Below the pieces are notes generated by a model. That model was not told the DNA's origin. It searched no databases and saw nothing but the letters and a program-made list of their open reading frames with translations. DNA of 32,000 bases from Bradyrhizobium manausense. Its GTDB lineage: Bacteria; Pseudomonadota; Alphaproteobacteria; Rhizobiales; Xanthobacteraceae. The DNA is taken from NCBI RefSeq assembly GCF_018129685.1, contig NZ_JAFCLG010000002.1, positions 397,377 through 429,376 on the forward strand, in the 5' to 3' direction. Below, piece by piece: positions 2,600-29,652 of the stretch. Positions within the stretch are counted from its first letter, which is position 1. Every line of letters begins with the position of its first letter. The translations under genes were made by a program, and so were the position numbers.

Positions 2600-3355
2600 T
2601 CAGGTAGCGACATAACCGCCGTCAACTACAACTTCCGAGCCGCAGAAGAACGATGACTCGTCCGAAGCGAGGAAGAGTATCGCCTGCGAGACTTCGATGG
2701 GCTGGCTGGGGCGGTTCAACAAGGTCGGCCCAAGGATCGCCTTGCGTGTCTCCGGATCGGCGTGAAGAAGATCCTTGGTCATGGGGGTATCGATCACCCC
2801 CGGGTGAATCGAATTCACCCGGATGTTGAAGGGCGCAAGGTCCACTGCACAGGACTTGGTCAGAAGCCGGACGGCCCCCTTGGACGCGATGTAGGCGCCC
2901 GCCGACGGCGCAGCGATGATCCCGTAGATCGACGAGATGTTGATAATGGACCCGCTACCGGACTCTTTCATCAGCGGCACGCATTCACGGATACCAAGGA
3001 AAACACCCCGAACATTGATGTTGAAAATACGATCCCATTCCTCGTTCGTCGTCTCGTGCGCAGGCTTCAGGATCAGGATACCGGCATTGTTCACCAGAAC
3101 ATCCAGCCGACCGGTCTTTGCCTTGACCGACGCAACTGCTGAGTGCCAGTCGGCCTCGCTCGTCACGTCTAGCTTGATGAACTCGGCCGTGCCGCCCCTG
3201 CCGCCGATGTCGTCGACCACCTGGCGGCCCTTTTCTGCGTCGATGTCGCAAACGAACACATGTGCGCCCTCGGCGGCCAGAAGCTCGGAATGGGACTTCC
3301 CCATTCCCATTGCGCCACCGGTGACCAGTACCACTTTCCCATTGACTCTGCCCAT
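2600..3355 (-). CDS. Classical short-chain dehydrogenase/reductase (SDR)
   Basis: Motifs: TGGAMGMG (TGxxxGxG), NNAG, the S..YIASK catalytic set and PGVIDTPM. I prefer the ATG at 3355 (MGRVNGKVVLVTGG) because it sits behind AGGGAGGAACTAC. The track start at 3391 adds 12 codons. Confidence 0.9.
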   Translation of the reverse strand: MGRVNGKVVLVTGGAMGMGKSHSELLAAEGAHVFVCDIDAEKGRQVVDDIGGRGGTAEFIKLDVTSEADWHSAVASVKAKTGRLDVLVNNAGILILKPAHETTNEEWDRIFNINVRGVFLGIRECVPLMKESGSGSIINISSIYGIIAAPSAGAYIASKGAVRLLTKSCAVDLAPFNIRVNSIHPGVIDTPMTKDLLHADPETRKAILGPTLLNRPSQPIEVSQAILFLASDESSFFCGSEVVVDGGYVAT

Positions 3356-3449
3356 GTAGTTCCTCCCTGGCTTTCTTAGTTCTCTTGACATGGATGGGAC
3401 AGGGCCGGGCCAGTTGACCCGGCCCTGTCCAGACGTAGTTCGAGGTAGA

Positions 3450-5069
3450 TCAGCGGTCGAACGACAGGGTCGAATAGCCGCTGTCCGCTACCGCCTTCAG
3501 TTCATTCCGGTAGCCCCCGATGCCGCCCATGTAGAACATCACGGTGTTCTTCTTGCCGGGGATGTTGGCGCCGAAGATCCACGACTGCACCTTCGGGAAG
3601 AGCGTCATGTTGGCGATCTCCTGGCAGGTCTTTGTCCAGCTCTCCTCGGCCTGCCGGGTCGGCTCTACTGTCAAGGCACGTGAACGTTCAGCATGGCCGA
3701 TGAGGTCGCCGATCCACTCCACCTGCGTCTCGATGCTAGGGGGCAGGTTCGTGAATGGGCCGTTCGGTCCGAGGATCATGAACATATTGGGAAAGCCGTG
3801 CGTGGACAGCCCCAGGTAGCTGGTCGGTCCGTCGCCCCAGTGTTCGTTGATGTGCCGCCCGCCGCGTCCGCGCAGGTCCATGGAACGATAGTTGCCGTCG
3901 ACCGCGTCGAAACCGGTCGCGAAGACGAGCACGTCTAGCTTGTGCTCGACGCTGTCGGCCGTGCGCACCCCGGCGGGCGTGATCGCCTCGATCGGATTCT
4001 CCTCGATCGAGACTAGCGTGACATTGTCGCGGTTGAAGGTTTCGTAGTAGCCCTCGTTGCACAGCGGGCGCTTGGCGTACAAGCCGGTCGGGGTGAGCTT
4101 GCGCGCGGTCTCCGGGTCCTTGACGATTTCCTTGATCTTCGAGCGGATGAACGCCGCCGCGGCCGCATTGGCCTCCGGGTTGGTGGCGATATCGCAGAAC
4201 GTGCCGAACATGAACCGGAAGCCGTTGCCCTTGTCCCAGTTCTCCTGGAAGACTCGGCGCCGCTCCTCCTCGGAAACGCTCATCGCCTCGACGCCGCTTT
4301 CCTGGAAGCCAAAGGCGACCACCGAGTTGCGCACCTGCTGCCAGATCGCGTCGAAGTTCTTCTTGGTCTCGACGACCTCGGCCCGATCGACCGGGCCGTT
4401 GCCGGACGGCACGCAGTATTGTGGCGAGCGCTGGAAGACTGTCAGATGGCCGGCCTGCTTGGCGGCGGCGACGATGAACTGAGTTCCCGTGGAGCCAGTA
4501 CCGATCACGCCGACCCGCTTGCCGGTGATGTCGAGGTCGCGCGGCCAGGCGTTGGTGTGCACGAGGATGCCGCCGAAGCTGTCTCGTCCGGGAATGTCGG
4601 GCATGTTGCTCTTCGCGAGGAGCCCGAGCGCCGTCACCAGGTAGCGGCTCGTGAAGGCTTCGCCCGTGCTCGTGCGCACCTGCCAGAGGTTACGCTGCTC
4701 GTTGAATACCGCGCTCGCGATTTCGGTATTCAGCTGGATGTCGCGGCGAAGATCGAACCGATCGACGACGTGGTTAAGGTACTGCTCGATCTCAGATTGC
4801 TCCAGGTAACGTGTGGTCCAGTCCCACTCCTGCAGCAGATCCTTGTCAAAGGAGTAGCGGTAGACGAAACCCTCGGTATCCGACTTCGCGCCGGGGTAGC
4901 GGTTGAAGTACCAGGTGCCGCCGATGCCGCCGCCCTTTTCGAACGCCCGGACCTTGAGCCCAAGCTCATTGCGCAGCTTGTGAAGCATGTAGATGCCGCC
5001 AAATCCGGCGCCGATCACGATAGCGTCGAAGTCAGCTTCCGTTCTGGATTTCCTGGCAAGATTGTTCAT
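3450..5069 (-). CDS. Type I Baeyer-Villiger monooxygenase (FAD/NADPH-dependent, cyclohexanone/acetone monooxygenase family)
   Basis: Motifs: GAGFGG (FAD), the BVMO fingerprint FGGILVHTNAWP (FxGxxxHxxxWP), GTGSTG (NADPH) and ATGFD. The start is at M60 of the track ORF (MNNLARKS..), behind GGAGAGAGCCA. The upstream 59 codons are Arg/Pro-rich and non-coding-like. Confidence 0.92.
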   Translation of the reverse strand: MNNLARKSRTEADFDAIVIGAGFGGIYMLHKLRNELGLKVRAFEKGGGIGGTWYFNRYPGAKSDTEGFVYRYSFDKDLLQEWDWTTRYLEQSEIEQYLNHVVDRFDLRRDIQLNTEIASAVFNEQRNLWQVRTSTGEAFTSRYLVTALGLLAKSNMPDIPGRDSFGGILVHTNAWPRDLDITGKRVGVIGTGSTGTQFIVAAAKQAGHLTVFQRSPQYCVPSGNGPVDRAEVVETKKNFDAIWQQVRNSVVAFGFQESGVEAMSVSEEERRRVFQENWDKGNGFRFMFGTFCDIATNPEANAAAAAFIRSKIKEIVKDPETARKLTPTGLYAKRPLCNEGYYETFNRDNVTLVSIEENPIEAITPAGVRTADSVEHKLDVLVFATGFDAVDGNYRSMDLRGRGGRHINEHWGDGPTSYLGLSTHGFPNMFMILGPNGPFTNLPPSIETQVEWIGDLIGHAERSRALTVEPTRQAEESWTKTCQEIANMTLFPKVQSWIFGANIPGKKNTVMFYMGGIGGYRNELKAVADSGYSTLSFDR

Positions 5070-5163
5070 TGGCTCTCTCCGTTGTCCACGCGAGGAATGG
5101 TGCCGCTGTTCATGATGTTGTGGGGTTGGGTCGCGAACCGGCGTGCCGGTGCGCGTGACCAAA

Positions 5164-6066
5164 TCAGAGGTTCTTGTACCAGGCGGCGATGCGGCCGAGT
5201 TCCTGATCTGCCTCGGGTGCGCGGCCGGCCAGCGCGGGAAAGACATGTTGCATGCCGGGGACCACTGACAGCACGGTCTTCACCCCTTGGGCTTTCGCCT
5301 TGGCATGAAGCGTTTCGGAATCGCTGAGCAGTGTCTCGTTCCCGCCGGCGTTGATGTAGAGCGGCGGAAAGCCCTTGAAGTCGTTTTCGAGAGGGTTCGC
5401 GAGCGGATCGTGCGGATCCGTCTTGCCGCCGAGGAACATGCCAGCCATTGCTTCGAGAATCGGCCGGCCGACCAGCGCGTCGGTAGCTGAATTGGTCTCG
5501 AGCGTGGGTCCGCGTAGGGCCATATCGAGCCACGGAGAGAAGGCGATCACGCTGCCGGGCAGTGGCAGGCGAAGATCGCGCATCTTGAGCACGCTCGCGA
5601 TAGCGAGATTGCCGCCCGCGCTGTCGCCCGCGGTCGAGATCTTCTTTGCATCAAAGCCCTTCTCGAGCAGAGCCTTGTAGGCGGCGACGGCATCCTCGAT
5701 CTGGGCGGGGAAGGGATGCTCGGGCGCTCGCCGATAGTGGAGCACAACAGCAGTGACATTGAGGGCCTTAGCCAGATGTCCCGCGAGTTTCCGGTGGCTG
5801 TCGGCCGAGCCGACTGCAAAGCCGCCGCCATGAGTGTAGACGATTGCGCGCGAGTTATCGGCGCCAACAGGAAGCGCCCAGATGGCCTCGACACCGCCGA
5901 CGCGATCGCTCTTGTAGCAGACATTCTCTGGTTCCAGCGCCGGCTGACCCCATTCGTCAAACATACTACGCAGGTTCGCGATCGACAAATTCGGATCGGC
6001 AACCATGCGGTTGGTCCAATCCTGATAGAGTGCACGCAGAAAATCAGCTTGCTTGCTCGAAGCCAT
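5164..6066 (-). CDS. Alpha/beta-hydrolase esterase, hormone-sensitive-lipase (family IV) type
   Basis: HGGGF oxyanion-hole motif, GDSAGG nucleophile elbow and a C-terminal ..GMQHVF.. His. Strong SD GGGGAGGAAAACCT-ATG. Confidence 0.9.
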   Translation of the reverse strand: MASSKQADFLRALYQDWTNRMVADPNLSIANLRSMFDEWGQPALEPENVCYKSDRVGGVEAIWALPVGADNSRAIVYTHGGGFAVGSADSHRKLAGHLAKALNVTAVVLHYRRAPEHPFPAQIEDAVAAYKALLEKGFDAKKISTAGDSAGGNLAIASVLKMRDLRLPLPGSVIAFSPWLDMALRGPTLETNSATDALVGRPILEAMAGMFLGGKTDPHDPLANPLENDFKGFPPLYINAGGNETLLSDSETLHAKAKAQGVKTVLSVVPGMQHVFPALAGRAPEADQELGRIAAWYKNL

Positions 6067-6268
6067 AGGTTTTCCTCCCCTTGAAAGACCTCGGCGTCGC
6101 CGCGTGCGCCGGAGATCTCTCTCGCGGAAGATGGCGCTACGGACGGGCCTGTTTTGGTCGTCTTGTCCAGGAAAGATAGCGCAGCGGGGTGAGCCGGTAT
6201 TGGACCGGCTTGCCCCGCTTCATGGTAGAATCTTGCTGGCGCCTACCAAGGGCGCGCACAGAGAACCA

Positions 6269-7147
6269 TCAGGCGCTGTTGCGGAAATTGTTTGGGGTAA
6301 CACCCAAGTACTTGCGGAATACGCGGATAAGGTGGCTCTGATCGGTGAAGCCACATTCGGCGGCAATCAATTTCAGCGGGAGGCGGCTGCTCTTCAGCAA
6401 GCACTCGGCCCTCTTGATGCGCCGCGAAAGAACATAAGAGTGCGGGGCCACTCCGAGATCAGCCTTGAATTTGCGCGAGAAGTGGTAGCTGCTCAGTCTG
6501 GCAAGACCCGCCAGATCGTCGAGCGTGATGTTTTTCGTAAGATTCTGGTCGATGAACTCGGTCATCATTCGCCGTAGGCGAGGACTGAACGAGCCCAGCT
6601 TGGGTGGCCTAAACTCCACCTTGGCATAGTGGCGCAACAGATGGATGGCGAGCTGCGTCCGGATCGAGTCAATATAGAGTCTTTCGCCGAGCCCCTCGCC
6701 CTGGAGTTCACTCTCCAGCATTTTCAGGTAAAGAGGGATGATCGGGTCCTCCGCCCGGACCCGATCATCCATTCTCACCCGATCGAGATCCTTTTCGAAG
6801 ACCTGGTTGGCGGTCTGTTCGATAATCTCGTGGCCGATGTAGATGTGCTTCACCCGGATCGGGCGATCCCATCGCCAAACCGACTGTTCGGCACGAGTCA
6901 GGAGCGAGATCACTCCCTTTTCTACGGCATCGCTGTGCCAAGGCCCGCCGCTGCTGCGTTGCATGATCGCTTTCGCGCCTTCATAGATAACGATCATGTA
7001 GTCGCGCATTAATGGAATCTTCGCTTCCTGGTCAGGATAGTGATACCCCTTGAGCGTTAGGCCGCTCCAGTCAAGATGAGAACTGTCCGCGATCTTCTCG
7101 CCGGGTATCCAGTTTGGGATCAGATCCGGCGGCACAAGCGCTGTCAT
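6269..7147 (-). CDS. AraC/XylS-family transcriptional regulator
   Basis: The C-terminal double HTH reads ITLDDLAGLARLSSYHFSRKFKADLGVAPHSYVLSRRIKRAECLL...ECGFTDQSHLIRVFRKYLGVTPNNFR. I prefer the ATG at 7147, behind GGGAGGATACAGA. Confidence 0.88.
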   Translation of the reverse strand: MTALVPPDLIPNWIPGEKIADSSHLDWSGLTLKGYHYPDQEAKIPLMRDYMIVIYEGAKAIMQRSSGGPWHSDAVEKGVISLLTRAEQSVWRWDRPIRVKHIYIGHEIIEQTANQVFEKDLDRVRMDDRVRAEDPIIPLYLKMLESELQGEGLGERLYIDSIRTQLAIHLLRHYAKVEFRPPKLGSFSPRLRRMMTEFIDQNLTKNITLDDLAGLARLSSYHFSRKFKADLGVAPHSYVLSRRIKRAECLLKSSRLPLKLIAAECGFTDQSHLIRVFRKYLGVTPNNFRNSA

Positions 7148-7369
7148 TCTGTATCCTCCCATGCTCGGCGCGCGATCCTCTAACGGGTTCTCTCAGAGCA
7201 AATGGCAGATTCTAACATACTGTATTTGCGACTAATAGTTAAGCGCATCGCGCAGCGCCTGAATTGGGCAATGTCTGCGCCTGCCTTGCGTCTCAGGCCT
7301 CGACCAGAATGGCTTCGAGGTCATCACGGATTTCGCCCAAGCGTCCGAGCGGTGGTACAAACTTGGTGC

Positions 7370-7565: not shown

Positions 7566-7689
7566 CCTGCCGCCAACTACACCACGCCAAGCGGACACGA
7601 ATTGCTCAAAAATGTGCGCATCGAAGTCACTAAGAAGAATGATCAGGCGGTCTGTCTTAGCTGCGGTAGTTTGTTTTGTGCTCGCGATG

Positions 7690-7915
7690 GCAAATTCGCA
7701 TTTGACGTGATCCCGCGGCGGCCTTAATGCCTTCGTGGGCGTCGGACATCACCAGCTTGATGCCGCGCAGGCCGCGGCGAACGAGCTTGCGCAGGAATGT
7801 GCAGAACGTCTCGGCCTCGCAGGGGCCGATATCAAGCCCGAGTATCTCGCGCCGTCCGTCGCTGTTGATGCCGACCAAAACGATCACGGCGACCGAAACA
7901 ATTCGGCCGGCCTAG
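7690..7915 (-). mobile_element. IS256-family transposase internal fragment (remnant)
   Basis: ..RIVSVAVIVLVGINSDGRREILGLDIGPCEAETFCTFLRKLVRRGLRGIKLVMSDAHEGIKAA.. is the conserved central block of IS256/Mutator transposases. It is preceded by a stop and truncated after about 75 aa. Its orientation is opposite to the 7370-7565 fragment. Confidence 0.7.
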
Positions 7916-10835: not shown

Positions 10836-11681
10836 TTACCGCGTCTCTTGGGATCCGGCAGATCCGAAAAATCGCAATATCTGATTTTGCATGGGCGGCC
10901 AGTCATTATGCGAGCCGCCTCCCTCACAGTAAACGGTCATCCCGTTGGGTGCGCAACCTTCGAATGCTAGGCAGCCACTGGCTTGCGGTGCGGGCGGTTT
11001 TGCGATGTCGCAGGCATTGCAGCGCGCCCACCACAGGGCGGCTTCCTTTCCCCAGCCCGGAAAATGTGTGTCCTGCTTGCCGTGCATGACCATCACCGGA
11101 ATGGGCTTCGGGCATCGAAAGGCTTCGAGGTCTTTCCGAGAGAAGCCCGCGGCGCTCGGAGCAATTGCCGACACGGTGCCTGTAGTCTCTTCCAGAACGG
11201 CGAGCGCAATCGACACCGTTCCGCCATCGGAGTGGCCGGTCGCATACACTCGATTTGGATCGACGCACCAAACGGCGGCAACTTCTTTAGGTAGCTGCGC
11301 AAGCTTTTCTATCGTCTTCACCGATAGAGGACGGCTACCGACATAAACCACGACGAAGCCGCTGCGGGTTGCCTCGGTGGTGAGGCGGGTGAGGGATTCG
11401 CTCTGTTTCGCATCATAGCCCGCCGGCGCATAGACGACGAGCAGCGGATGCGCATAGGTCGGATCGAGGTTTGCAGGCGCCCTCACGTTATAATGAAAGC
11501 CATCGCGCGATGTAAGGCCGTCGGTGGCACCTGGTCCGGCCGGCTTGCTGCCGGGGGAACAGGAGCCGCGGCGCACAGCGTGCGCATAGTCGAAGCTGAC
11601 GACCGAAGTCCCCTCCGGCGGCTCCGATGATCCGGAGCATCCAGAACACGATGCCACCACAAGCGCAATTACAACGCGCAT
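10836..11681 (-). CDS. Secreted or lipoprotein alpha/beta-hydrolase, PHB-depolymerase/feruloyl-esterase-like (LpqC-type)
   Basis: GHSDGG nucleophile elbow in the context ..DPNRVYATGHSDGGTVS.., and a Cys-rich C-terminal region. MRVVIALVVASCSGC gives a lipobox-like VASC. The start is uncertain (ATG 11681 versus GTG 11765). Confidence 0.7.
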   Translation of the reverse strand: MRVVIALVVASCSGCSGSSEPPEGTSVVSFDYAHAVRRGSCSPGSKPAGPGATDGLTSRDGFHYNVRAPANLDPTYAHPLLVVYAPAGYDAKQSESLTRLTTEATRSGFVVVYVGSRPLSVKTIEKLAQLPKEVAAVWCVDPNRVYATGHSDGGTVSIALAVLEETTGTVSAIAPSAAGFSRKDLEAFRCPKPIPVMVMHGKQDTHFPGWGKEAALWWARCNACDIAKPPAPQASGCLAFEGCAPNGMTVYCEGGGSHNDWPPMQNQILRFFGSAGSQETR

Positions 11682-11779: not shown

Positions 11780-12388
11780 CTAGTTTGGTGGTATGCTGAG
11801 GCGGGCGTCCAATTTCTTTCTGACACGTGCCGAATAACGATATAAGGCAAATCCTACCAATGGAACTACGATGAAAAGCAGGTATTTCTCGTAGAACGAC
11901 TTTCCAGAAGCCACACTGAAGGGAAACCGTGAGACGTATTCGCCCTTTGCGCCCGCGGTAACCAGTCCGATAAATTTTCCAGCCTTATCGAACGTATATT
12001 CCAAGGCAATGCTGCCAGAGGGGTAAACTTTGGGCTGCAGGTGCACAACGGTGATGGTCTCCAAATTGCTGTTGTCTCCCGTATCCCGCACGATTCGCAC
12101 CTCGATCGGGATGTCGCGCAGAGCATCATCAACCGCGTCCAGCACCACCACCGTTTTGCCGGTCTCCGGAATGTCTTCGCAGAACTCCCTGCTGCCGGTT
12201 GCTTGCGGCTGGTACCCGGTAAAGTGCATGATGTATGCTCCCAATCGGAGCCTACACACGTCATTTTCCATACTGACGCCACCGTGGGAAGAGGCCGGCT
12301 GGGACGACAAAACCAGCAGAGGCACTGCAAACGAAAGGCCGCGCAATGCCGATCTGGAGTACCTCCTGATCGTGAGCTTATCGACCAT
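11780..12388 (-). CDS. Exported protein with a C-terminal membrane anchor, in the PmoD/AmoD position of the CuMMO operon. Family not verified.
   Basis: Signal peptide (..FAVPLLVLSSQPASSHG), a ~140-aa soluble domain with a single Cys (ENDVCRLRLGAYIMHF), one C-terminal TM (LLFIVVPLVGFALY) and a basic tail. It starts 29 nt after the pmoB stop on the same strand. Confidence 0.6.
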   Translation of the reverse strand: MVDKLTIRRYSRSALRGLSFAVPLLVLSSQPASSHGGVSMENDVCRLRLGAYIMHFTGYQPQATGSREFCEDIPETGKTVVVLDAVDDALRDIPIEVRIVRDTGDNSNLETITVVHLQPKVYPSGSIALEYTFDKAGKFIGLVTAGAKGEYVSRFPFSVASGKSFYEKYLLFIVVPLVGFALYRYSARVRKKLDARLSIPPN

Positions 12389-12417
12389 CGCGCAGCTTCG
12401 TCCTATTAAACCTGGCT

Positions 12418-13677
12418 TCAGATCGTCTTTTTGAAGACTGGAACAATGGGCCCGTATACTTCGCTCATGGAGCGGTTGCCTTTCCCGTCATAGAAAAACA
12501 GCAATCCGCCCATTCTACTGTCAACGTTAGAAAGAAAGCTCACCAAACGTTCTACTTCCCATGCCGCATCCGTTGTATCCAGGTTCACCAGACGGCTTTC
12601 ACCAGGTGCAAGCGGCTCCGGATGGTCGATGACAAGGCCGTTCCGGGGGACCAGCTCCTTCGGAAATTTCGAACTGACTGCCGCCACCGCCGCAGGAAGA
12701 CTCTTATTTATGAAACGCAGGTTAGCGGTGGTGAACTCGCCAACGCTCACGGGTTGATCGGACGTATTGGTCATCTCTACGCTCAGGCGCATGGACCGAC
12801 CGGGAACGTCGTACTCGGCCCTCTTGAACTTGATTTCAACCGCGTGGGGCGGCTTGGGCAGTGGTGGAGTGGAAAGAGACCCCGATTGAAGCGGAACCAG
12901 TTCTGGAAACTCGGACGTCGTTCTGGTGTATCCGACCAGCACCACGATCGCCAAAAGGACCAGCAGGGCCGCCGCAACTTTGTCGTCCATCGGCGTGATG
13001 AGAAGGTCCTCTCGCCCCTTCTTGACCACGAGCCAGCGCGAAATGATGAGGGGCCTGCGCAGCCACCATAGGATCCACACCGCGGCAATCAGCCCGAACC
13101 CAAACTGCCACATCTGCACGCGTGAAACGCCAAACGTTTGCAGATCGTCGATCTTGTTTCCAGTCAAGGTCGTGAGCGGATCCTTGAAATCCGCTTCGTT
13201 GCCGCTGACAGTTATCCATTCTCCCGGCCCAACGACCGCCCCGGCCCCATGGATGTTCATGACCGGATGAAGGTGCCACTGTCCCACCTTACGCGCCTTC
13301 ATAACGAGTTTGAAGTCATAATCCCGTCCGACGATCAAACCCTTGGTGGACTGCCGTGCGGGAATTTCGTTGATGTACGATTCTACGCGGGTCATGACGG
13401 CGCCGGGCGAGCCGTTGGAAAGGAACACCAGATTGGGCAGACTCACCGAATCCGGCCAATCGTTCAATAAGTGAAACTTGCCCTGGACGGTTACTGTATC
13501 GTTGACGTTAAGCGCATCGGTTGACCAAGTGACGTCATACCAATGCACAGTGCGCGTTCTGATGTAAGGCTCGGTCGCCCGCTCGCCGTGCGCGAATGCG
13601 GCCTGATCCATAAGGGAAAATAGCAATGTCGTCGCGGCCCAAACGAGCAACGTCGCCTTTTTCATTATCTTGCTCAT
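12418..13677 (-). CDS. pmoB: Copper membrane monooxygenase subunit B (PmoB/AmoB family)
   Basis: The signal peptide ends AFA, so the mature N-terminus is HGERATEPYIRTRTVHWYDVTW (compare PmoB HGEKSQAAFMRMRTIHWYD). The WHLHPV HxH motif, two central TM helices and a C-terminal cupredoxin-like domain are present. The start overlaps the pmoA stop (ATGA, 13674-13677). Confidence 0.9.
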   Translation of the reverse strand: MSKIMKKATLLVWAATTLLFSLMDQAAFAHGERATEPYIRTRTVHWYDVTWSTDALNVNDTVTVQGKFHLLNDWPDSVSLPNLVFLSNGSPGAVMTRVESYINEIPARQSTKGLIVGRDYDFKLVMKARKVGQWHLHPVMNIHGAGAVVGPGEWITVSGNEADFKDPLTTLTGNKIDDLQTFGVSRVQMWQFGFGLIAAVWILWWLRRPLIISRWLVVKKGREDLLITPMDDKVAAALLVLLAIVVLVGYTRTTSEFPELVPLQSGSLSTPPLPKPPHAVEIKFKRAEYDVPGRSMRLSVEMTNTSDQPVSVGEFTTANLRFINKSLPAAVAAVSSKFPKELVPRNGLVIDHPEPLAPGESRLVNLDTTDAAWEVERLVSFLSNVDSRMGGLLFFYDGKGNRSMSEVYGPIVPVFKKTI

Positions 13678-14477
13678 AGAGCACCCGCATCGATTTTAGC
13701 GCCATAAAGCTCCTTGAAGCGGTATCCCACCGGTATGTATTTGGGTGTGCAGGCGACCACACCCATCAACCAGAACACCGAGTAGGCGAACATGCAAACG
13801 AACGCAGAAAAGAACGCTGAGACCCAGTTGGCGGAGTCGCCGAACGTGCGCAAGGTTCCGCGTTCGATAATTCTTATGTATTCAGGCGTGCCGGAACGAG
13901 GGAAGACGTAGCCGATGATATCGGCAACAGACGCCATCTCACCCATATGCTCTGCTGGCTGGAAATATGGCGCCAGATAAATCCAGTTTGTCGGAAAGAA
14001 CGAGAGACCATAAATAACGCCGCCGAACACGGCCGTTATAACCCAGCTTCGGCTCAGCACAAGGATGAAGTCGAGTGCCATCGCTCCGACTAGACCGGTC
14101 GCTGGAACAACGAGACTGAGCGGGAAGTAGGCCATGCCTTCCCAAGCATGGTATCTGACAATCCAGACGCCGATCAGAAACAGAAGTGCGCTAGCTGTCG
14201 CTCCGATTGGCAGGCGAAATAGAGTCCAGAAGATCGCCTGAAATGCCGCGGCCGACATTATGGAGACTATCGGCGTTATCAGAATCCAATACTGTCTGTC
14301 TTTCCAGTCAATAAAAAAATCCCAGTCCCCAGCGAAAAGGAGAAAATGGATGTGCGTAACGGACCATACAAGGAAGGCAGCTATGACGACAATCAGGTAG
14401 TCGAAAGTTCGTGAATAGCGCGCTATTCTTGGCGACATTTCTGCCGCAGCTAAAATTGCTTGATCGTTGTCAGTCAT
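13674..14477 (-). CDS. pmoA: Copper membrane monooxygenase subunit A (PmoA/AmoA family)
   Basis: Blocks GDWDFFIDWKDRQYW, FRLPIGAT, VRYHAWEGMAYFPLSLVVPA, SWVITAVFGG and GTPEYIRIIERGTLRTFG are collinear with conserved PmoA/AmoA blocks. Confidence 0.92.
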   Translation of the reverse strand: MTDNDQAILAAAEMSPRIARYSRTFDYLIVVIAAFLVWSVTHIHFLLFAGDWDFFIDWKDRQYWILITPIVSIMSAAAFQAIFWTLFRLPIGATASALLFLIGVWIVRYHAWEGMAYFPLSLVVPATGLVGAMALDFILVLSRSWVITAVFGGVIYGLSFFPTNWIYLAPYFQPAEHMGEMASVADIIGYVFPRSGTPEYIRIIERGTLRTFGDSANWVSAFFSAFVCMFAYSVFWLMGVVACTPKYIPVGYRFKELYGAKIDAGAL

Positions 14478-14620: not shown

Positions 14621-15400
14621 TCAGGCTTTCGCCAAGTTTGCGCCATCGATCTCTTTGAAAAGCTCCGCCATCCTCATGGTCGCCTGAAGAAGGACGCCGC
14701 CAAGAGCAAAGCCGGTCCACCCAAGAACCGGGAAGCCCCAATGGAGCGGATGGCTGAAGATTTCTTCAGTGAGCCAGAACGCGTGGCCCCACTCGTTATA
14801 GCCAAGGTTCGGCAGAATGAGCCCGGGCCCGAGCACAGCCATGATGAGCGGCACCGAATAGCCTTTTGAGAATTTGGGAATCCGCGTGGTAGCATATAGA
14901 AGGCTGCTAACGCCCAAGATGATATACAGTGGAATACAAGCGTAAAATACGACGATATGGCTGGGAGTAAGCGCGGTGTCGCGAATCACGGTTTGATGCC
15001 AAGTGGCATCGCTCTCACCAAAGAAGCTAGCGATCCAAAGAAAAGAAAACGTATACAGCAAGAACCACGCGACGAGGCTAAAGTAGCGGCGCAGTTCCGT
15101 TTCGGCGTCGATTTTGTCGAGGTTCTTATCCCGGGTGAGCCAAAGGTAGGCCCAAATGGCGAAGCCCACCCCGAAAATAAGCGGTACCTCGACTTTGAAC
15201 AGCGTCAGCCAGTAGGTCGCAAATTCGGGGGATGTCGAATCCAGGCCGTACTTGAATGCAAATGCCTGCTGGTAAAGCCGAAGCCCTACGTAGATGGCGA
15301 GCAGCACTCCCCAGGAGATGGCCACCGGCACGAGATTGATAAGCTTTTTCGTATGTTGCGGGTCAGCCGCCCGCGGCTCAGATTCTAAGATGGCATGCAT
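14621..15400 (-). CDS. pmoC: Copper membrane monooxygenase subunit C (PmoC/AmoC family)
   Basis: ESDATWHQTVIRDTALTPSHIV contains the D..H..H metal site. NEWGHAFWLTEEIFSHPLHWGF contains the N..H..H site. I prefer the ATG at 15400 (MHAILE..), 8 nt behind GAGGAGG. The track start at 15436 adds 12 codons. Confidence 0.92.
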   Translation of the reverse strand: MHAILESEPRAADPQHTKKLINLVPVAISWGVLLAIYVGLRLYQQAFAFKYGLDSTSPEFATYWLTLFKVEVPLIFGVGFAIWAYLWLTRDKNLDKIDAETELRRYFSLVAWFLLYTFSFLWIASFFGESDATWHQTVIRDTALTPSHIVVFYACIPLYIILGVSSLLYATTRIPKFSKGYSVPLIMAVLGPGLILPNLGYNEWGHAFWLTEEIFSHPLHWGFPVLGWTGFALGGVLLQATMRMAELFKEIDGANLAKA

Positions 15401-15581
15401 AGTCCCGCCTCCTCTCGCTGATGATAACTTAGTCAACTATTGTCCTATGACTTGGGATACGGTCCTTTAGTATTAGGGTCCCACCTGCCCGCGGTCGTTG
15501 CTGAAGCGCCTGACGGACCTATCCGACTGGCGTCCGGCCCAAGGCCCTGATCCCGGAAAGTGGATTCCGGTATCTTGGCCT

Positions 15582-15719: not shown

Positions 15720-16160
15720 GCATACAAGTCTAATCCATGACAGCAGCCTCGTTCGCGCAGCAAGCGCCTTCGCTTACCATCGCCGATGGCATCCGCAGGC
15801 TCCGGCACGAGGGTGTTAGCCGCCTCATGTTGGAGGCGATCGGCATCGTTAATCCGCGCCGCATCAAGGCCTTTCCGCGAGACCGGGGGGCGGCGCGCCA
15901 AGACCGACAGGCTGGACGCGCGGCTGATTGCGCGCTTCGCTCTTGTCATGATCGACGAGATCCGCCCGCTGTCTTCCGCCGAACAGCAAGCCCTGAAGGC
16001 GCTGTCGCCAGTCGACCGAGATGGTCGCGATAGAGAAGACGCGGCTCAAGCAGGCGGTCGAGCCCATGCTGTTGGCAAGCCGCCGCACCCTTTACTCGAT
16101 GAGGTTTGCGAGAGGATAAGAAGAGATGCAGGATCGGTCTTACCGGCGCATGCGACACTG
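15720..16160 (+). mobile_element. IS110-family transposase fragment, multiply frameshifted (remnant)
   Basis: The pieces ..IVNPRRIKAFPRD.., ..GRRAKTDRLDARLIARFALVM..IRPLSSAEQQALKAL.. and ..EKTRLKQAVEPMLLAS.. sit in three different frames. They match the conserved IS110 N-terminal/central blocks. Confidence 0.65.
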
Positions 16161-16617
16161 GTGACCCAAATGGCCCGTTGAGGCCTGTCCATTAATGAGA
16201 TCGCACGCGCGCGCGCTGATATCCATATTGGTCCGGAGCAAAACTCGCTCCAATCAGAGACCGGATACATTGATACAAGACCGCTGACGCCAGCTCGACG
16301 AAAACCTCTTGCGACGCGCGGCCGGAGGCGCCACGAAGGTTGTGCGCGCCTGAACCCTGCAATCTCAAACCCGCAAGCGAGCCAAAAACTGACTCGCGCT
16401 CAATGGCTTAGAAATTTTTCACGCACGACTTTGTATGTCGTCGTCTATCAGCTCAATGGCAGGGTGTTGCCGTGACAACGGCTGGCGTCTGCTTCGCTAA
16501 TGTTTGCATCGACGGCGAAGGCTTCGCCCTTGATCAGGCCGGCATTCATGCATGCCGTACAGTCTCAAAAATGTATCGGAGAATGTCACTATCGCGGAAT
16601 CGAAGTTCAAGCCACGC

Positions 16618-19743: not shown

Positions 19744-20919
19744 GTGGGTAGGACCGATCACCGGTTCAGCAATGAATCTGGCGTCGCCGTCGTCCAGGCG
19801 AAAGCGTCGTCGGCAGTCGAGGCGGCGGCGGAGATTGCCCGGCAACTGCCCAGGGACGGACTGGCGATTGTTATCGTCTTTTGTTCGCCTTGCTATGATC
19901 CGCACGAGTTTGCCGCTGAAATCGCTGAAATCTATGGACCCATTCCGGTCTATGGCTGCACGACTGCTGGCGAACTTGCGCCCGGAGGCTGGGATGACAA
20001 CAGCGTTGTCGCGCTGGGATTTAGCGCGCAGGACTTTAGCGCAGTCGCGAGGCCATTACTCGATCTCGCCCAATTTCGGGTCGAGGATGGCCGCAGAATT
20101 GGCGCCGAGCTGCGGCAAGAATTTACACGATGTTCGCCAGAAGTAGCGGATCGACAATCCTTTGGACTTTTGCTGATTGATGGCATGTGCAAACGCGAGG
20201 ATGTGGTGATGTCGGCGCTCTACGCGTCGCTCGATAATATTCACGTCGTTGGAGGATCCGCGGGCGACGGTCTGCGTTTTGGACAGACGTGGGTCTTTTG
20301 CGACGGCCAGGCCCATACCGACGCCGCGGTGCTGATCATTCTGACAACGTCACTGCCCTTTCGCCTATTCAAATGCGATAACTTCGAGCCGACATCGACA
20401 AAGATGGTGGTAACCGAAGCTGATATAGAATTGCGCGTTGTCAAGGAGCTGAATGCGGAGCCGGCTGCCCAGGAATATTCGCGTGCAGTTGGAATCGGTG
20501 ACACCCACCTTGATATGTTTTCGTTTGCTTCTCATCCCGTTCTTGTCCGGGCCGGCGGCACGTACTATGCACGCTCGATCCAGCGGGTAAATCCTGACGA
20601 CGGATCTCTCAATTTTTACTGCGCTATCGATGAAGGAATGGTCCTCACCGTAGCGAAAGCCCGTAATCCGATCGGAGCAATGCTCGAGCTGTTTGCTGAA
20701 ACACGGGCAGAGATCGGCGAGGTCTCGCTCTATATCGGCTTTGAATGTCTGTTTCGGCGGCTGGATGCGGAACAGCATCAATTCGCCCGCGACATGTCTG
20801 AACTTTATCGCGAAAATCGGGTGGTCGGGTTTCACACCTACGGCGAACAGTACCGCGCAATGCACCTGAACCAGACATTGACCGGAGTTGCGATCGGCAA
20901 GAGGCCGGTTTCGCCATGA
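19744..20919 (+). CDS. FIST-domain sensor protein (FIST_N/FIST_C, NosP-like architecture)
   Basis: Soluble 391-aa protein with FIST-type blocks: ..IVFCSPCYDPHEF..PVYGCTTAGEL.. and ..IHVVGGSAGDGLRFGQTWVF... Its C-terminal block is ..LYIGFECLFRR......NRVVGFHTYGEQ. GTG start behind GAGAGAGGGA. The stop overlaps the kinase start (ATGA). Confidence 0.85.
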   Translation: MGRTDHRFSNESGVAVVQAKASSAVEAAAEIARQLPRDGLAIVIVFCSPCYDPHEFAAEIAEIYGPIPVYGCTTAGELAPGGWDDNSVVALGFSAQDFSAVARPLLDLAQFRVEDGRRIGAELRQEFTRCSPEVADRQSFGLLLIDGMCKREDVVMSALYASLDNIHVVGGSAGDGLRFGQTWVFCDGQAHTDAAVLIILTTSLPFRLFKCDNFEPTSTKMVVTEADIELRVVKELNAEPAAQEYSRAVGIGDTHLDMFSFASHPVLVRAGGTYYARSIQRVNPDDGSLNFYCAIDEGMVLTVAKARNPIGAMLELFAETRAEIGEVSLYIGFECLFRRLDAEQHQFARDMSELYRENRVVGFHTYGEQYRAMHLNQTLTGVAIGKRPVSP

Positions 20920-22268
20920 TGCCGCAAGATCAAGATTCCGTAGAGGCGCTGCAACGGGAGACCACGAAACTCAGGAAGATCAACGCCGCGCTGATGTCAC
21001 GCGTGGAACGGTCGATGGATCAGCAATCCAATGCGTTTTCATTGTTCGAGACGGCTATCGCGCTGGATCATCAGGTTCGCAGCCGAACCCAACAATTGCA
21101 GGAGGCGTTACGTTCGATTGAGCGCACCAACGGCTATCTCTATCGTGCCAAACAGCAGGCCGAGGCGGCCAGTTCGCTGAAATCTTCCGTGTTGATTTCC
21201 GTAACCCACGATCTCCTACAGCCGTTAAATGCGGCGAGGCTGACGCTCTCGGCGTTCGCAGAGATGGCTGTTTCGGAACAGGGAACCGCGCTCATCGAGC
21301 AAGTTGACCGGTCCTTGCTTACGCTTGAGGATTTGCTAAGAACACTGCTCGATATTTCCAAGCTCGACGTCGGCGTTTTGAAGCCGGAACCGCGTCCGCT
21401 ATTGATTTCGTCCTTGTTCGACCCGCTTAAACAGGAATTCGCGCCGTTTGCCGCGAAGCGAGGCTTGTCATTGACGATTCAGCCGTCGTCCCACGCGGTG
21501 ATTTCAGACCCGATGATGCTTCGCCGGATTTTGCAGAATCTGTTGGCCAACGCCCTCAGGTACACTCAGAAAGGCAGAGTCCTGATGGGTTGCCGGCAGA
21601 AGGGCGACAAACTCCAGATACAAGTTCATGATACCGGACCTGGTATACCCGAAGGCCAGCGGCAAGCGATCTTTCTGGAATTCCAGCGCGGTGAAGCAGG
21701 CGACGGAGATGAAGCCGGTTTCGGGCTTGGTCTATCGATCGTGCGCCGCTTCGCGACGGCTCTCGGCCATGAAATTCATCTTGCTTCGCGCGTAGGTCAC
21801 GGCTCGTCCTTTTCTGTCACCCTGCCTCGTACAGAACTCGAGGCGTACCCGGAGACGGGGCGCGAGCTTCAATATGTCGACTTCCAATACAGCGGACTCG
21901 AAGGTGCAAAAATACTGCTCGTTGAAAACGATTCATCGAGCGCGGAGGCGATGGCCTTCCTGCTTGAAGAATGGGGATGCGACGTCGCCAAGACGATATC
22001 CGCAGCAGATGCGTTGGAGCGAATCGGAGCACTCGGCGGCGCGCCTGATGCGATCATCGCGGATCTTCATCTAGACGGCAATGAAAGCGGTCTGGAGGCC
22101 ATCAGTGCGGTACGCCAGCAGGTCAGGATCGAAATTCCCGCCATGATAGTCACTGCGGACTATTCGGTAGAGGCAGCGAGGGAGGCTTCGATCTACGGCA
22201 TTGAACTCCTTAAGAAGCCTGTCAAACCCGCTGAGATGCGATCTCTGTTATCATTCCTGTTGGCTTGA
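20916..22268 (+). CDS. Cytoplasmic hybrid sensor histidine kinase (coiled coil, HisKA, HATPase_c, receiver)
   Basis: H-box SVTHDLLQPLNAARL, N-box LLANALRYT, G1 HDTGPGIP and G2 GFGLGLSIV. The C-terminal REC domain reads KILLVENDSS...DAIIADLHLDG...KKP. No TM segment is present. Confidence 0.9.
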   Translation: MMPQDQDSVEALQRETTKLRKINAALMSRVERSMDQQSNAFSLFETAIALDHQVRSRTQQLQEALRSIERTNGYLYRAKQQAEAASSLKSSVLISVTHDLLQPLNAARLTLSAFAEMAVSEQGTALIEQVDRSLLTLEDLLRTLLDISKLDVGVLKPEPRPLLISSLFDPLKQEFAPFAAKRGLSLTIQPSSHAVISDPMMLRRILQNLLANALRYTQKGRVLMGCRQKGDKLQIQVHDTGPGIPEGQRQAIFLEFQRGEAGDGDEAGFGLGLSIVRRFATALGHEIHLASRVGHGSSFSVTLPRTELEAYPETGRELQYVDFQYSGLEGAKILLVENDSSSAEAMAFLLEEWGCDVAKTISAADALERIGALGGAPDAIIADLHLDGNESGLEAISAVRQQVRIEIPAMIVTADYSVEAAREASIYGIELLKKPVKPAEMRSLLSFLLA

Positions 22269-22322
22269 GATGGGCTCATTCGAATCGCGTTGTATCGGTC
22301 GATCAAGCGGCCGCAAGGCCTA

Positions 22323-23018
22323 TTACGTCTCGATACGCTCAGATACCTGATGCTTGACCGGAGGAGAACAGATCAGACTCGCAAAATCGATTTTCGAGAT
22401 TTCTATGATGGCATTGGTACGGCTAAATACGTTCAATTTGCGTAAAATATCCGACACATGAACCTTGACCGTAGTTTCGCAAATCTTAAGTTCATAAGCA
22501 ATTTGCTTGTTCTGTAGACCCCTGCGCAACATGTCCAGTACACGCAGTTGCTGCGGCGTCAGATCGTGAAGGCTTTTAAGCAGCTCCCGATTGTCGACCC
22601 TGGGTCGTCGCGTTCTTGCCGCTTCCCGATAGCGCTTGGGAAGATAGATGGTTCCTCGCAATACTTCACCAATGGAGTCCGTGAGTTCGCGCTTCGATGT
22701 CGATTTGGGAATGTAACCGGAGACCCCGAGCGCGAGAACGCTCTGGACAATTTCCAAATCCTCGTAGCCAGAAACGATCACGATGGGACTCTTCGGAAAT
22801 GCTTTCCGAATGCGCATGACACCGGAAAGCCCGATGGTGCCGGGCATCGAAAGATCGAGCAGGACAAGGTCTATTTGATGGGTCGAAGAAAGCACTTCCA
22901 ATGCCTCGTCGATCGACGCTGCTTGGAAGATTTCCGCGTCGGGTATGGCGACGCAAACGGCGCTTTCCAGCGCTTCGCGAAACAAGGGATGGTCTTCGAC
23001 AATCAAAAATCGCGTCAC
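22323..23018 (-). CDS. LuxR/FixJ (NarL)-family response regulator, paralogue 1
   Basis: REC domain (RFLIVEDHPLFREAL..LVLLDLSMPG..IPKS) plus a LuxR HTH (LTPQQLRVLDMLRRGLQNKQIAYELKICETTVKVHVSDILRKLNV). I prefer the GTG at 23018. The 51 upstream codons of the track ORF look non-coding. Confidence 0.88.
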   Translation of the reverse strand: MTRFLIVEDHPLFREALESAVCVAIPDAEIFQAASIDEALEVLSSTHQIDLVLLDLSMPGTIGLSGVMRIRKAFPKSPIVIVSGYEDLEIVQSVLALGVSGYIPKSTSKRELTDSIGEVLRGTIYLPKRYREAARTRRPRVDNRELLKSLHDLTPQQLRVLDMLRRGLQNKQIAYELKICETTVKVHVSDILRKLNVFSRTNAIIEISKIDFASLICSPPVKHQVSERIET

Positions 23019-23286
23019 GTTGCAACGATCCTTGTATCGGTCACAATATATCCGGAACGAAATAATGCAGAACGTCCCTCCATATAGCCAGTTGCGACCT
23101 GTGGCGGAAGTCACTTTTTGGAGCTGGCCGTAAGCTGCGAACCATCGTTTGCCGGGGCCGTCCGAGGCCATTGATCGATGCAGGACGGCATTCGCGACCT
23201 ACTACCATGTAGTCCTTGCGTCATGGTAAGTCTTGTAGATCATAAAGGAAAATCCCCGCAGGCTGGGGAAATACTCTGGTGCCGAT

Positions 23287-24951: not shown

Positions 24952-26163
24952 TTATTCCGCGGGGCTTTGTACGGTCATCAGATAAGCGTACACGTTGTTA
25001 AGCTGGTTATCTTTGAATACTTCGTTCCATGCGGGCATCCCCTTCGCCGGGCGTCCCTCGTGAACGGTCTTCCAATACGTATTGCGCATGTTATCGCCAT
25101 ACCGAACTCGTAGCCGTCGAAGGTCGATGCGACGTTCGCTCTGTACGGCGTCAGGACCGTGGCAGTGTGCGCACGTACCGTTGAAAATTTCGCGCCCCTC
25201 GCTCACCGCTTCAGGAGTTGCTACGGGCGTCTCGGCTGCTGAATTGGCCGCCGTAAGGGTGGCTGTCGCCTGTGCCAGAACGACGGGTAGCGCCGGTGTG
25301 TCCAAGGCGGCATGCATGACCGCTGGCTGCGCGACTGCGCTCAGCTTGATTGGGATGTCGGTCGGAAAGCCATACTTGGCCGAGAGGTCGGGAATCAGTG
25401 CTGCCAGCCCCGGGATCTGCGCATCAACCTGATCCCGCAATTCCGTTGAGCCTTTTGCAAAGCCAATTGCCACGGGCCACAGCAGGCCGTCGCCATCGGT
25501 GCTCTGGATATCGTAGCGGCCGCCATATTCGGTCTTGTTGAGCCAGCCTGCGACGGGACCCCAGATGAACGTGACATCGACCTTGCCCTCGTCGAGCGCC
25601 CTCATGCCTTCTTCGGGGCTAAGTACGGTTTTCTTTTCTATATCATCGCGCAGCGCAAGAATATTTTGGGGCGTCGATTGATATTGCACCGCCACGCGGA
25701 GTTGTTTGAGATCGTCGATGCTGGAAACCTTGCGTCCCTTTGCGGTCACCAGCGCATAACCTTCCTTGATGATCGGCTTCGAGAAGATGACCGCCGGCCC
25801 CATGAAATCCTCGCTGGGCGTCAGGCCGATCATGGCATCGCATTGTTTGCCCAGCAGCGTGACGCGTACTGTGCGTTTGCCGAAATAGGATTTGTACCAG
25901 TCATAGCTGACCGGACGCCCCAGCGCCTTGCCGAGAGCCTGCCCAATTTCCAGGTAGACGCCCGGCATCGAGGGATTATCGCTTGAGAATGGCAGATTGG
26001 TCGGATCGGCGCAAAGCCGCAGCGGCTGCGCGTCGTCGGCGCCGGCCTGTGAAGCCGGCGCCAGAAGCGTGAGAACGACAACAACAGCGGGGATACTCGC
26101 GTGGACACAAGCGTTGCATTTGTCGCTGGACGATCCACGTGTGCCCAGTAGCTTTGCTAGCAT
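24952..26163 (-). CDS. Fusion protein: MoxJ/XoxJ-like periplasmic SBP domain, Ala/Pro/Thr linker, C-terminal mono-haem cytochrome c (XoxG / methanol-metabolism cytochrome c type)
   Basis: Signal peptide, then ..LRLCADPTNLPFSS..GVYLEIGQALGKALGRPVSYDW..VDVTFIWGPVAGW.. (type-2 SBP, MoxJ-like). A ~45-aa low-complexity linker (AVAQPAVMHAALDTPALPVVLAQATATLTAANSAAETPVATPEAV) follows. The cytochrome part is GREIFNGTCAHCHG....GRPAKGMPAW, with the CAHCH codons at 25159-25173. I prefer the ATG at 26163, behind GGGAGTTGAGG. It starts 24 nt after the xoxF stop. Confidence 0.8.
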   Translation of the reverse strand: MLAKLLGTRGSSSDKCNACVHASIPAVVVVLTLLAPASQAGADDAQPLRLCADPTNLPFSSDNPSMPGVYLEIGQALGKALGRPVSYDWYKSYFGKRTVRVTLLGKQCDAMIGLTPSEDFMGPAVIFSKPIIKEGYALVTAKGRKVSSIDDLKQLRVAVQYQSTPQNILALRDDIEKKTVLSPEEGMRALDEGKVDVTFIWGPVAGWLNKTEYGGRYDIQSTDGDGLLWPVAIGFAKGSTELRDQVDAQIPGLAALIPDLSAKYGFPTDIPIKLSAVAQPAVMHAALDTPALPVVLAQATATLTAANSAAETPVATPEAVSEGREIFNGTCAHCHGPDAVQSERRIDLRRLRVRYGDNMRNTYWKTVHEGRPAKGMPAWNEVFKDNQLNNVYAYLMTVQSPAE

Positions 26164-26187
26164 CCTCAACTCCCTGTCGTTTAGTTT

Positions 26188-29280: not shown

Positions 29281-29652
29281 ATGTCGCTTCGTACTCTCCT
29301 GACCGTCGCTGCTTTTGCAGTATGGCCCAACTGGGCGTTTGCCCATGCCGCGCTGGTTGGATCGAGTCCTGGCAGCAGGGCTGTGGTCACTCACATGCCC
29401 GATCATATCGATCTTTGTTTCAATGAGCCTGTCGAGGTCAAGTTCTCCACCGTGCAGATCACAGATGAAAAGGGCACGACCATACCTATTTCGGAGCTTA
29501 AGCACGGCGCCGACCCCAAGTGTCTTAGCGCTACCGTTCCGCCAGCGGCTGCAGGGATTTATACAGTGAAGTACCGCGTGCTCTCTCAGGACGGTCATGT
29601 GGTTAAATACGGCTTCCAGTTCACGGTGAGGGAAAGACAGCCTGTACCGTGA
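29281..29652 (+). CDS. copC: Periplasmic copper-binding protein CopC
   Basis: The signal peptide ends WAFA, so the mature N-terminus is HAALVGSSP. This is followed by ..IDLCFNEPVEVKFSTVQITDEKG..GIYTVKYRVLSQDGHVVKYGFQFTV, the CopC/YobA pattern with an N-terminal His. The ATG at 29281 sits behind GGTGGAGAAG. The track start at 29197 adds 28 codons. Confidence 0.88.
   Translation: MSLRTLLTVAAFAVWPNWAFAHAALVGSSPGSRAVVTHMPDHIDLCFNEPVEVKFSTVQITDEKGTTIPISELKHGADPKCLSATVPPAAAGIYTVKYRVLSQDGHVVKYGFQFTVRERQPVP

Follow-up and report, generated by a model that had tools for sequence, protein, structure and literature searches.

The 32,000-nt stretch of Bradyrhizobium manausense DNA analyzed here (the window) carries a CuMMO operon in which xmoC, xmoA, and xmoB all lie upstream of a fourth gene on one strand (Table 1). 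This fourth gene, which we refer to as the D gene, is separated from the pmoB stop (12418) by a 29-nt spacer and is read from the same strand; the ORF and the spacer agree with the position that an initial annotation, made from the sequence alone, had assigned to it. Comparison with related sequences indicates that the D ORF is a real gene rather than a chance frame, considering that a large-database search yielded 563 homologs at E ≤ 1e-3 and that dN/dS is 0.17. The latter value was obtained against the 76% identical gene of the metagenomic contig L091 and drops to about 0.07 in the soluble domain, suggesting that the D gene is functional and constrained; the two proteins are 87% identical in the soluble domain versus 61% in the transmembrane (TM) segment and tail. 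A profile search of 1.84 billion representatives retrieved 798 clusters at 50% identity, and a one-genome-per-species scan identified 454 loci. The genome itself (7.48 Mb, 58 contigs) encodes, according to an own-genome search, exactly one PmoD-family protein and one PmoB, the latter from a single PF04744 locus directly upstream of the D gene. A second, degenerate amoE-like copy in the genome was ruled out by the single match in the same search.

The N-terminus of the D protein comprises, according to a hydropathy scan, a basic n-region and a hydrophobic core at approximately residues 13-28, followed by A32-S33-S34↓H35, a site consistent with the signal peptidase I rule. A twin-arginine signal was considered because of R8-R9 and rejected: the n-region is variable among homologs, and the S/T-R-R-x-F-L-K pattern is missing from it; we therefore assume export by the Sec route. 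In the AlphaFold2 (AF2) model, helices span residues 13-27 and 165-197. Hydropathy and AF2 thus agree with the initially described order of signal peptide, periplasmic domain, one C-terminal TM helix, and basic tail.

Table 1. Coordinates of the D gene, its predicted protein features, and associated genes in the window
Feature	Position	Strand	Basis or remarks
xmoC	14621-15436	minus	Pfam AmoC/AMO/Monooxygenase_B matches for xmoCAB (E 1e-80 to 1e-132); also NCBIfam
xmoA	13674-14477	minus	Pfam and NCBIfam, very strong
xmoB, 419 aa	12418-13677	minus	Pfam and NCBIfam, very strong
AGGA ribosome-binding site	12401-12404	minus	12 nt 5' of the ATG, within the pmoB-pmoD spacer; read from sequence
xmoD/pmoD gene, AmoD-type	11780-12388	minus	ORF, 202 aa plus stop, ATG start
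Signal peptide, Sec-type, residues 1-34	12287-12388	minus	Hydropathy and sequence; cleavage A32-S33-S34↓H35 predicted by rule
H35, predicted first mature residue (H-G-G)	12284-12286	minus	Invariant in 19 and 92 homologs
Periplasmic cupredoxin-like beta-sandwich, residues 35-164, ~130 aa	11897-12286	minus	AF2 strands 38-159, pLDDT mostly >90
C45-x8-M54-H55, candidate copper-ligand motif, AmoD class	12224-12256	minus	Sequence; C45 and H55 invariant, M54 at least 90% conserved
C70, second invariant Cys (CxnC)	12179-12181	minus	Alignments
C-terminal TM helix, residues ~166-185	11834-11893	minus	Hydropathy peak 2.34 at residues 169-183
Basic cytoplasmic tail (RYSARVRKK)	11783-11833	minus	Sequence
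PHB-depolymerase-like lipoprotein esterase, lipobox VASC	10836-11681	minus	Pfam and NCBIfam; directly downstream of the D gene
copC	29344-29628	plus	
copD-cytochrome c fusion, 665 aa	29649-31646	plus	Follows copC

Family membership and motif class of the D protein

The D protein had been described as unrecognizable in sequence, yet a plain phmmer search against PDB sequences returned a single match, the soluble domain of PmoD (6CPD; E = 2.8e-19, query residues 43-157). Scans against Pfam and NCBIfam, the kind of profile search that the initial annotation had proposed, produced no family match, only a chance similarity to UL21a (E = 0.1), and the relationship to PmoD came from phmmer instead. 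These libraries hold no model for the PmoD/AmoD family, which accounts for the absent match without any lack of homology; the orphan appearance of the D protein is probably due to this empty result. The AF2 model, built on 92 homologs with a mean pLDDT of 86.9, consists of a beta-sandwich (residues 38-159) and a long C-terminal helix. When the model was compared with PDB structures using Foldseek, 6CPD ranked first (E = 2.4e-12, target TM 0.83, rmsd 2.7 Å over 128 columns, 34% identity), with the runner-up eight orders of magnitude weaker; the predicted structure thus resembles the PmoD fold.

The defining features of the PmoD/AmoD family, according to Fisher et al. (2018, PMC6189053), are a signal peptide, two invariant Cys residues within a periplasmic domain, a C-terminal TM helix, and a CuMMO-encoding genome. 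All features that lend themselves to analysis in silico were found in the D protein: a leader (by sequence rules), a single TM segment, located at the C-terminus (hydropathy and AF2), the CxnC motif, homology to 6CPD, the cupredoxin-like fold, and a CuMMO encoded in the genome. Judged by sequence and modeled fold, the D protein genuinely belongs to the PmoD/AmoD family, in the AmoD (Cx8MHxnC) subclass, and thus represents a known family rather than a new kind of subunit.

The assignment to the subclass depends on the arrangement of the conserved residues. Only one Cys had been noticed in the soluble domain, and the copper site initially suggested was built on that miscount. The domain contains two, C45 and C70, neither of which varies across 19 and 92 aligned homologs or among 139 cluster representatives, and the actual signature is C45-x8-M54-H55-x14-C70 together with H35, as in AmoD. 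The invariant residues in the alignments of 19 and 92 homologs include H35, G36, D43, C45, H55, and C70. The family has been divided by motif into a Cx7MxHxnC class, which comprises the crystallized PmoD and AmoE, and a Cx8MHxnC class, to which the annotated AmoD of ammonia oxidizers belong; a CuA-like dimer is formed by the Cx7MxHxnC class only (Fisher et al., PMC6189053). Counted from the first Cys, the CuA-class motif has its Met at position +8 and its His at position +10. In the D protein, position +8 is occupied by Ile53, with Met at +9 and His at +10, and C45, M54, H55, and C70 make up the C-x8-M-H...C motif of the AmoD subclass. The equivalent Cys pair of 6CPD, Cys41 and Cys65, is disulfide-bonded in the crystal (PMC6189053).

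Signature columns were read from all family members in 87 fetched loci. In the D protein, these columns read HGG / D / C / x-M-H / C / H116, and the AmoD proteins of Nitrosomonadaceae and Nitrosospira show the identical signature. The AmoE signature includes HG(K/N) and M-x-H. The protein encoded at locus L087 of the Methylocystis-like genome G409, which corresponds to the 6CPD sequence, shows E-G-G and M-I-H at these positions. This locus (G409:C6:1011857-1015405) matches the 6CPD chain over the stretch of about 32 residues in the motif region that was compared. G409, which belongs to the same order as the window genome, encodes at least eight PmoD paralogs.

Phylogeny and operon context of the D protein

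A phylogenetic tree of 158 family members was built using FastTree. The D protein belongs to a 27-leaf clade (support 0.94), all leaves of which correspond to genes located after xmoB in non-nitrifiers. This clade is nested within a 115-leaf group that also includes AmoD of ammonia oxidizers and the second and third copies of comammox Nitrospira, and the AmoE-type sequences fall outside this AmoD-type group (support for the split, 0.98). Support is weak (0.42) at the node that unites the window clade with AmoD of ammonia oxidizers. By phylogeny and signature columns, the D protein groups with AmoD, not with AmoE or the PmoD of alphaproteobacterial methanotrophs. Comammox Nitrospira (L027-L081) encode three tandem PmoD-family genes, one AmoE-like followed by two AmoD-like, which lie approximately 4-5 kb from amoC and not after amoB. 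In the second and third comammox copies, the position of His55 is often occupied by Tyr, and the N-terminal His is kept.

For the analysis of gene order, we selected from 79 genome loci the 37 found in organisms that are neither Nitrospira nor Nitrosomonadales, a set that includes Nevskia, Panacagrimonas, Polycyclovorans, Sterolibacterium, Rhodocyclales, Rhodoferax, Acidovorax, Methylibium, Hyphomicrobium, and several Bradyrhizobium species. A PmoB homolog ends 12-186 nt 5' of the D gene on the same strand in 36 of these loci, and in the remaining one (L021), xmoB and the D gene overlap by 12 nt. The order xmoC-A-B-D is retained wherever the flank is long enough. The co-occurrence of this gene with CuMMO operons, which the initial annotation had singled out for examination together with a possible absence from orthologous operons, thus extends to all 37 related non-nitrifier operons: a D homolog lies directly after xmoB in every one of them, and none lacks the gene. 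The name "xmoCABD" gave no match in a full-text literature search.

Taken together, sequence, fold, motif, and synteny bear out the main proposal of the initial annotation, that of a PmoD/AmoD-type copper protein, as far as family membership is concerned.

The candidate copper site and the proposed role

The initial annotation had pointed to a His immediately after the predicted cleavage site. The HGG is indeed present there, with H35 and G36 invariant in 92 homologs. Residue counts at the level of clusters were obtained for 139 of the 150 best representative clusters, namely those that cover both Cys columns. In these, the H35 column is His in 119 of 139 clusters (86%), with Ala at -1 in 111 of 139 (an A-x-A↓H-G pattern, the cleavage being predicted); the H55 column is His in 103 of 139 (74%); and the M54 column is Met in 86 of 139 (62%). 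Conservation across the family is thus higher for the predicted mature N-terminal His than for the Met and His residues published as ligands. The crystallized PmoD (6CPD sequence, L087) has Glu at the position of H35. Only about three residues precede the first Cys in the 6CPD construct, and every published construct had an additional Ser-Met at its N-terminus; a histidine brace goes unmentioned in the main text of Fisher et al. (PMC6189053). Given these extensions and the start of the 6CPD construct near the first Cys, the in vitro work could not have revealed a site involving the N-terminal His.

In PmoB (CuB), CopC, and lytic polysaccharide monooxygenases (LPMOs), the copper site has an N-terminal His as its hallmark, and the window's own PmoB has HGE directly after the leader. 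These parallels turn a brace-like site in AmoD-type proteins into a testable hypothesis, which we put forward tentatively, as a possibility with the balance still against it: the copper site that matters physiologically in AmoD- and AmoE-type proteins, the D protein included, might have the mature N-terminal His (H35) as a histidine-brace-like ligand, with C45 and H55 possibly contributing. If so, the CuA dimer observed in vitro would be an exceptional case, and the general chemistry of the family would be that of a mononuclear copper-transfer site. The strongly conserved N-terminal His offers a concrete and cheap test for the long-open question of PmoD/AmoD function.

Several published observations bear on this function. 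PmoD domains bind copper, and amoD and amoE are co-transcribed with amoCAB (PMC6189053). When the in-operon pmoD of Methylosinus trichosporium OB3b was deleted, a growth defect appeared only under copper-replete, pMMO-dependent conditions, and the pMMO subunits were still made (PMC6189053). Actinobacterial CuMMOs work without any PmoD (PMC6189053), indicating that PmoD is not an obligatory catalytic component. PmoD-family proteins have not been observed in purified pMMO and AMO structures (PMC13058606); the "AmoD" and "AmoE" of recent AMO cryo-EM papers are unrelated small subunits, and these papers offer no sign of PmoD-family proteins in the complex (PMC12804982).

Against this background, the explanation that, taken as a whole, we hold with high confidence is that the D protein is an AmoD-type, membrane-anchored periplasmic protein whose gene is linked to xmoCAB. 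The D gene would be co-transcribed with xmoCAB, and its product would serve the CuMMO encoded there. Following export and cleavage of the signal peptide, the protein would be held at the periplasmic face of the inner membrane by its one C-terminal helix. C45, M54, H55, and C70 on the cupredoxin-like beta-sandwich would be the candidates for binding copper, perhaps joined by the newly formed N-terminal H35. The protein would acquire copper, probably Cu(I), and transiently insert it into the CuMMO or repair the copper site, in a manner akin to chaperones of the Sco or PCuAC type, and CopC and the CopD-cytochrome c fusion of the same island could act alongside it.

We infer copper binding and, from gene neighborhood and analogy, a chaperone function; transient copper handling in the periplasm in support of the CuMMO is the likeliest specific role, to which we would give an even chance. 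This role is favored by copC and the copD-cytochrome c fusion in the window, whose homologs are neighbors of the operon in L091 and another related locus, L092, and by the copper-dependent growth defect of the M. trichosporium pmoD deletion; the failure to see PmoD-family proteins in purified complexes favors a transient partner. However, in the window itself, copCD lies 17 kb from the D gene, following IS-associated rearrangement, and the formation of a CuA-like redox center in vitro by the related Cx7MxH class points toward electron transfer instead of the delivery of copper.

This last observation underlies the foremost alternative, in which the D protein would dimerize around a CuA-like dicopper center and act as a periplasmic electron donor or relay to the CuMMO. 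PmoD Met49242_1452 indeed makes a mixed-valent CuA site to which two monomers contribute Cys, Met, and His (PMC6189053). The corresponding Cys and His are invariant among D homologs, the modeled fold is cupredoxin-like, and the island encodes, besides the CopD-cytochrome c fusion, another c-type cytochrome. However, CuA is, according to Fisher et al., confined to the Cx7MxHxnC class, and the Cx8MH motif of the D protein shifts Met by one position, out of register for the sole class shown to form CuA, which makes a CuA donor less likely. The PmoD CuA site is, moreover, unstable in oxygen (PMC13058606), and actinobacterial CuMMOs need no PmoD. On balance, we regard the CuA donor as unlikely.

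A structural function appears considerably less plausible still. Under this scenario, the D protein would be a stable stoichiometric subunit whose C-terminal helix packs on XmoC and stabilizes the trimer or membrane arrays, in keeping with the conserved operon position, the invariable presence of the TM helix, and the earlier proposal that an unassigned helix beside PmoC/AmoC is PmoD (PMC13058606). That helix has since been given to other small proteins, however, and modeling PmoD at that site lent the idea no support (PMC13058606, PMC12804982); furthermore, the TM segment and tail form the less conserved part of the D protein, at the above 61% identity versus 87% in the soluble domain. Finally, the distinct accessory subunit that the initial annotation had kept as its alternative, unrelated to PmoD and mimicking only position and topology, would accord with the empty Pfam and NCBIfam scans but is refuted by the phmmer and Foldseek matches to 6CPD and the common motifs, as well as by 46-54% identity to AmoD of Nitrosomonadaceae and Nitrosospira, and can be set aside for all practical purposes.

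Genomic setting and comparison with known systems

No D homolog was found in any of 36 congeners or in 7 more searched subsequently, and among about 400 genomes of the order, family members were detected in only one other, the Methylocystis-like G409. Vertical inheritance within the genus was considered and appears unlikely in view of this distribution. The G+C content of the operon is 53-59% versus 62-69% in the left part of the window, and transposase remnants at 7657-7887 and 15786-16181 (IS110-type) bracket a block consisting of MCP, the esterase, and xmoDBAC. Given the lack of homologs in the sampled congeners, the flanking remnants, and the lower G+C, horizontal acquisition of the operon looks like the simplest reading. 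Several Bradyrhizobium species (L030, L032, L039, L044, and L058) carry another xmoCABD lineage that is 45-50% identical in all four proteins; the presence of this divergent lineage in named Bradyrhizobium suggests that CuMMO operons have entered such genomes more than once.

Of 35 loci that could be assessed, 9 have an esterase homolog immediately 3' of the D gene and in the same orientation; L091 and L092 also have one, with 72% and 55% identity, respectively. The esterase thus looks to be a recurrent fifth gene of this type of CuMMO operon. In L091 and L092, which are close relatives, copC/copD homologs adjoin the xmoCABD-esterase block, so the island in the window appears to derive from an extended xmoCABD-esterase-copCD cluster by rearrangement. 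The window also contains genes for a FIST sensor, a hybrid histidine kinase, and a LuxR-type response regulator (19744-23171), which are syntenic with a trio adjoining the operon in L091 (L091:5882-9223) at 38-52% identity and may constitute the regulator set of the operon.

Two further gene groups bear on the substrate. Positions 2600-7162 (minus strand) hold a cluster encoding an SDR, a 598-aa flavin monooxygenase of the Baeyer-Villiger type, an alpha/beta-hydrolase, and an AraC regulator. An SDR, a Baeyer-Villiger monooxygenase, and a hydrolase form the classical set for conversion of a secondary alcohol to a ketone, an ester, and finally an acid plus an alcohol; this cluster would fit sub-terminal alkane oxidation by the CuMMO. 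Positions 24952-27906 (minus strand) encode a PQQ-dependent alcohol dehydrogenase (572 aa) followed by a fusion of a solute-binding protein with cytochrome c (405 aa), an arrangement that resembles xoxF-xoxJ/G.

In the NCBIfam "bacterial ammonia monooxygenase" equivalogs, XmoB (533 bits, cut-off 336) and XmoC (335 bits, cut-off 319) score above the thresholds and XmoA below (277 bits vs. 290), and automatic annotation would name the operon AMO in an apparent heterotroph. The closest CuMMOs occur in Nevskiaceae, Sterolibacterium, Rhodoferax, Acidovorax, and Methylibium, with 64-81% identity for subunit C and 64-77% for subunit A. They are of the kind that Rochman et al. (2020, ISME J 14:714; cited in PMC9562985 and PMC8630023) reportedly attributed to alkane-using Betaproteobacteria, among them Rhodoferax and Polaromonas. 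The neighborhood, with the 2600-7162 set, the PQQ dehydrogenase with its cytochrome c, and the lipoprotein esterase, favors a hydrocarbon-type substrate over ammonia, and the associated CuMMO is probably an alkane monooxygenase.

The gene product, at present a "hypothetical protein," should be named a PmoD/AmoD-family protein; with no model in Pfam or NCBIfam, the family is routinely missed. First described as specific to methane and ammonia oxidizers (PMC6189053), the family is, as the present result adds to the evidence, not confined to them. In many heterotrophic proteobacteria, the hosts probably being oxidizers of short alkanes, the D gene is fixed as the fourth member of xmoCAB operons. 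Its fixation there implies that the function of PmoD is general to periplasm-facing CuMMOs and is not tied to methane or ammonia.

Among characterized systems, AmoD (orf5) of ammonia oxidizers and comammox AmoD1/D2 come closest to the D protein. They likewise consist of a leader, a cupredoxin-like domain, and a C-terminal TM helix; AmoD has the identical signature (A↓HGG, D43, C-x8-M-H, the second Cys, and H116), falls in the same clade of the tree, and is encoded after the B gene. Identity between the D protein and AmoD of ammonia-oxidizing bacteria and comammox amounts to approximately 45-59%. Unlike the AmoD hosts, the window genome is of the large heterotroph type (7.5 Mb), with a single copy and no amoE partner directly upstream, and the neighborhood of the operon suggests a CuMMO of an alkane or ketone pathway rather than AMO. 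AmoE (orf4) of betaproteobacterial ammonia oxidizers belongs to the same family and shares the topology and the N-terminal A↓HG, but has the Cx7MxH motif, is only about 30-35% identical to the window protein, and lies outside the AmoD-type clade. PmoD Met49242_1452 of Methylocystis sp. Rockwell (6CPD) similarly conserves both Cys residues and the His and is encoded directly after pmoB; it differs from the Cx8MH protein of the window in belonging to the CuA-forming Cx7MxH class, and the gene for the 6CPD sequence (L087, G409) encodes Glu in place of the invariant His35.

Sco and PCuAC are small beta-sandwich proteins, membrane-tethered or periplasmic, that deliver Cu(I) to a membrane oxidase by means of Cys, His, and Met residues. 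The parallel with the D protein is one of functional analogy only: no sequence relationship was detected, and neither protein was among the Foldseek fold matches. At the level of the whole operon, the Rhodoferax/Polaromonas CuMMO clusters offer the nearest counterpart. The locus of Rhodoferax ferrireducens isolate OTU1 (L015) has the same xmoC-A-B-D order followed by the esterase, with CuMMO subunits 66-72% identical and the D protein 56% identical to those of the window; the differences lie in the host lineage and in the island of the window being flanked and broken up by IS remnants.
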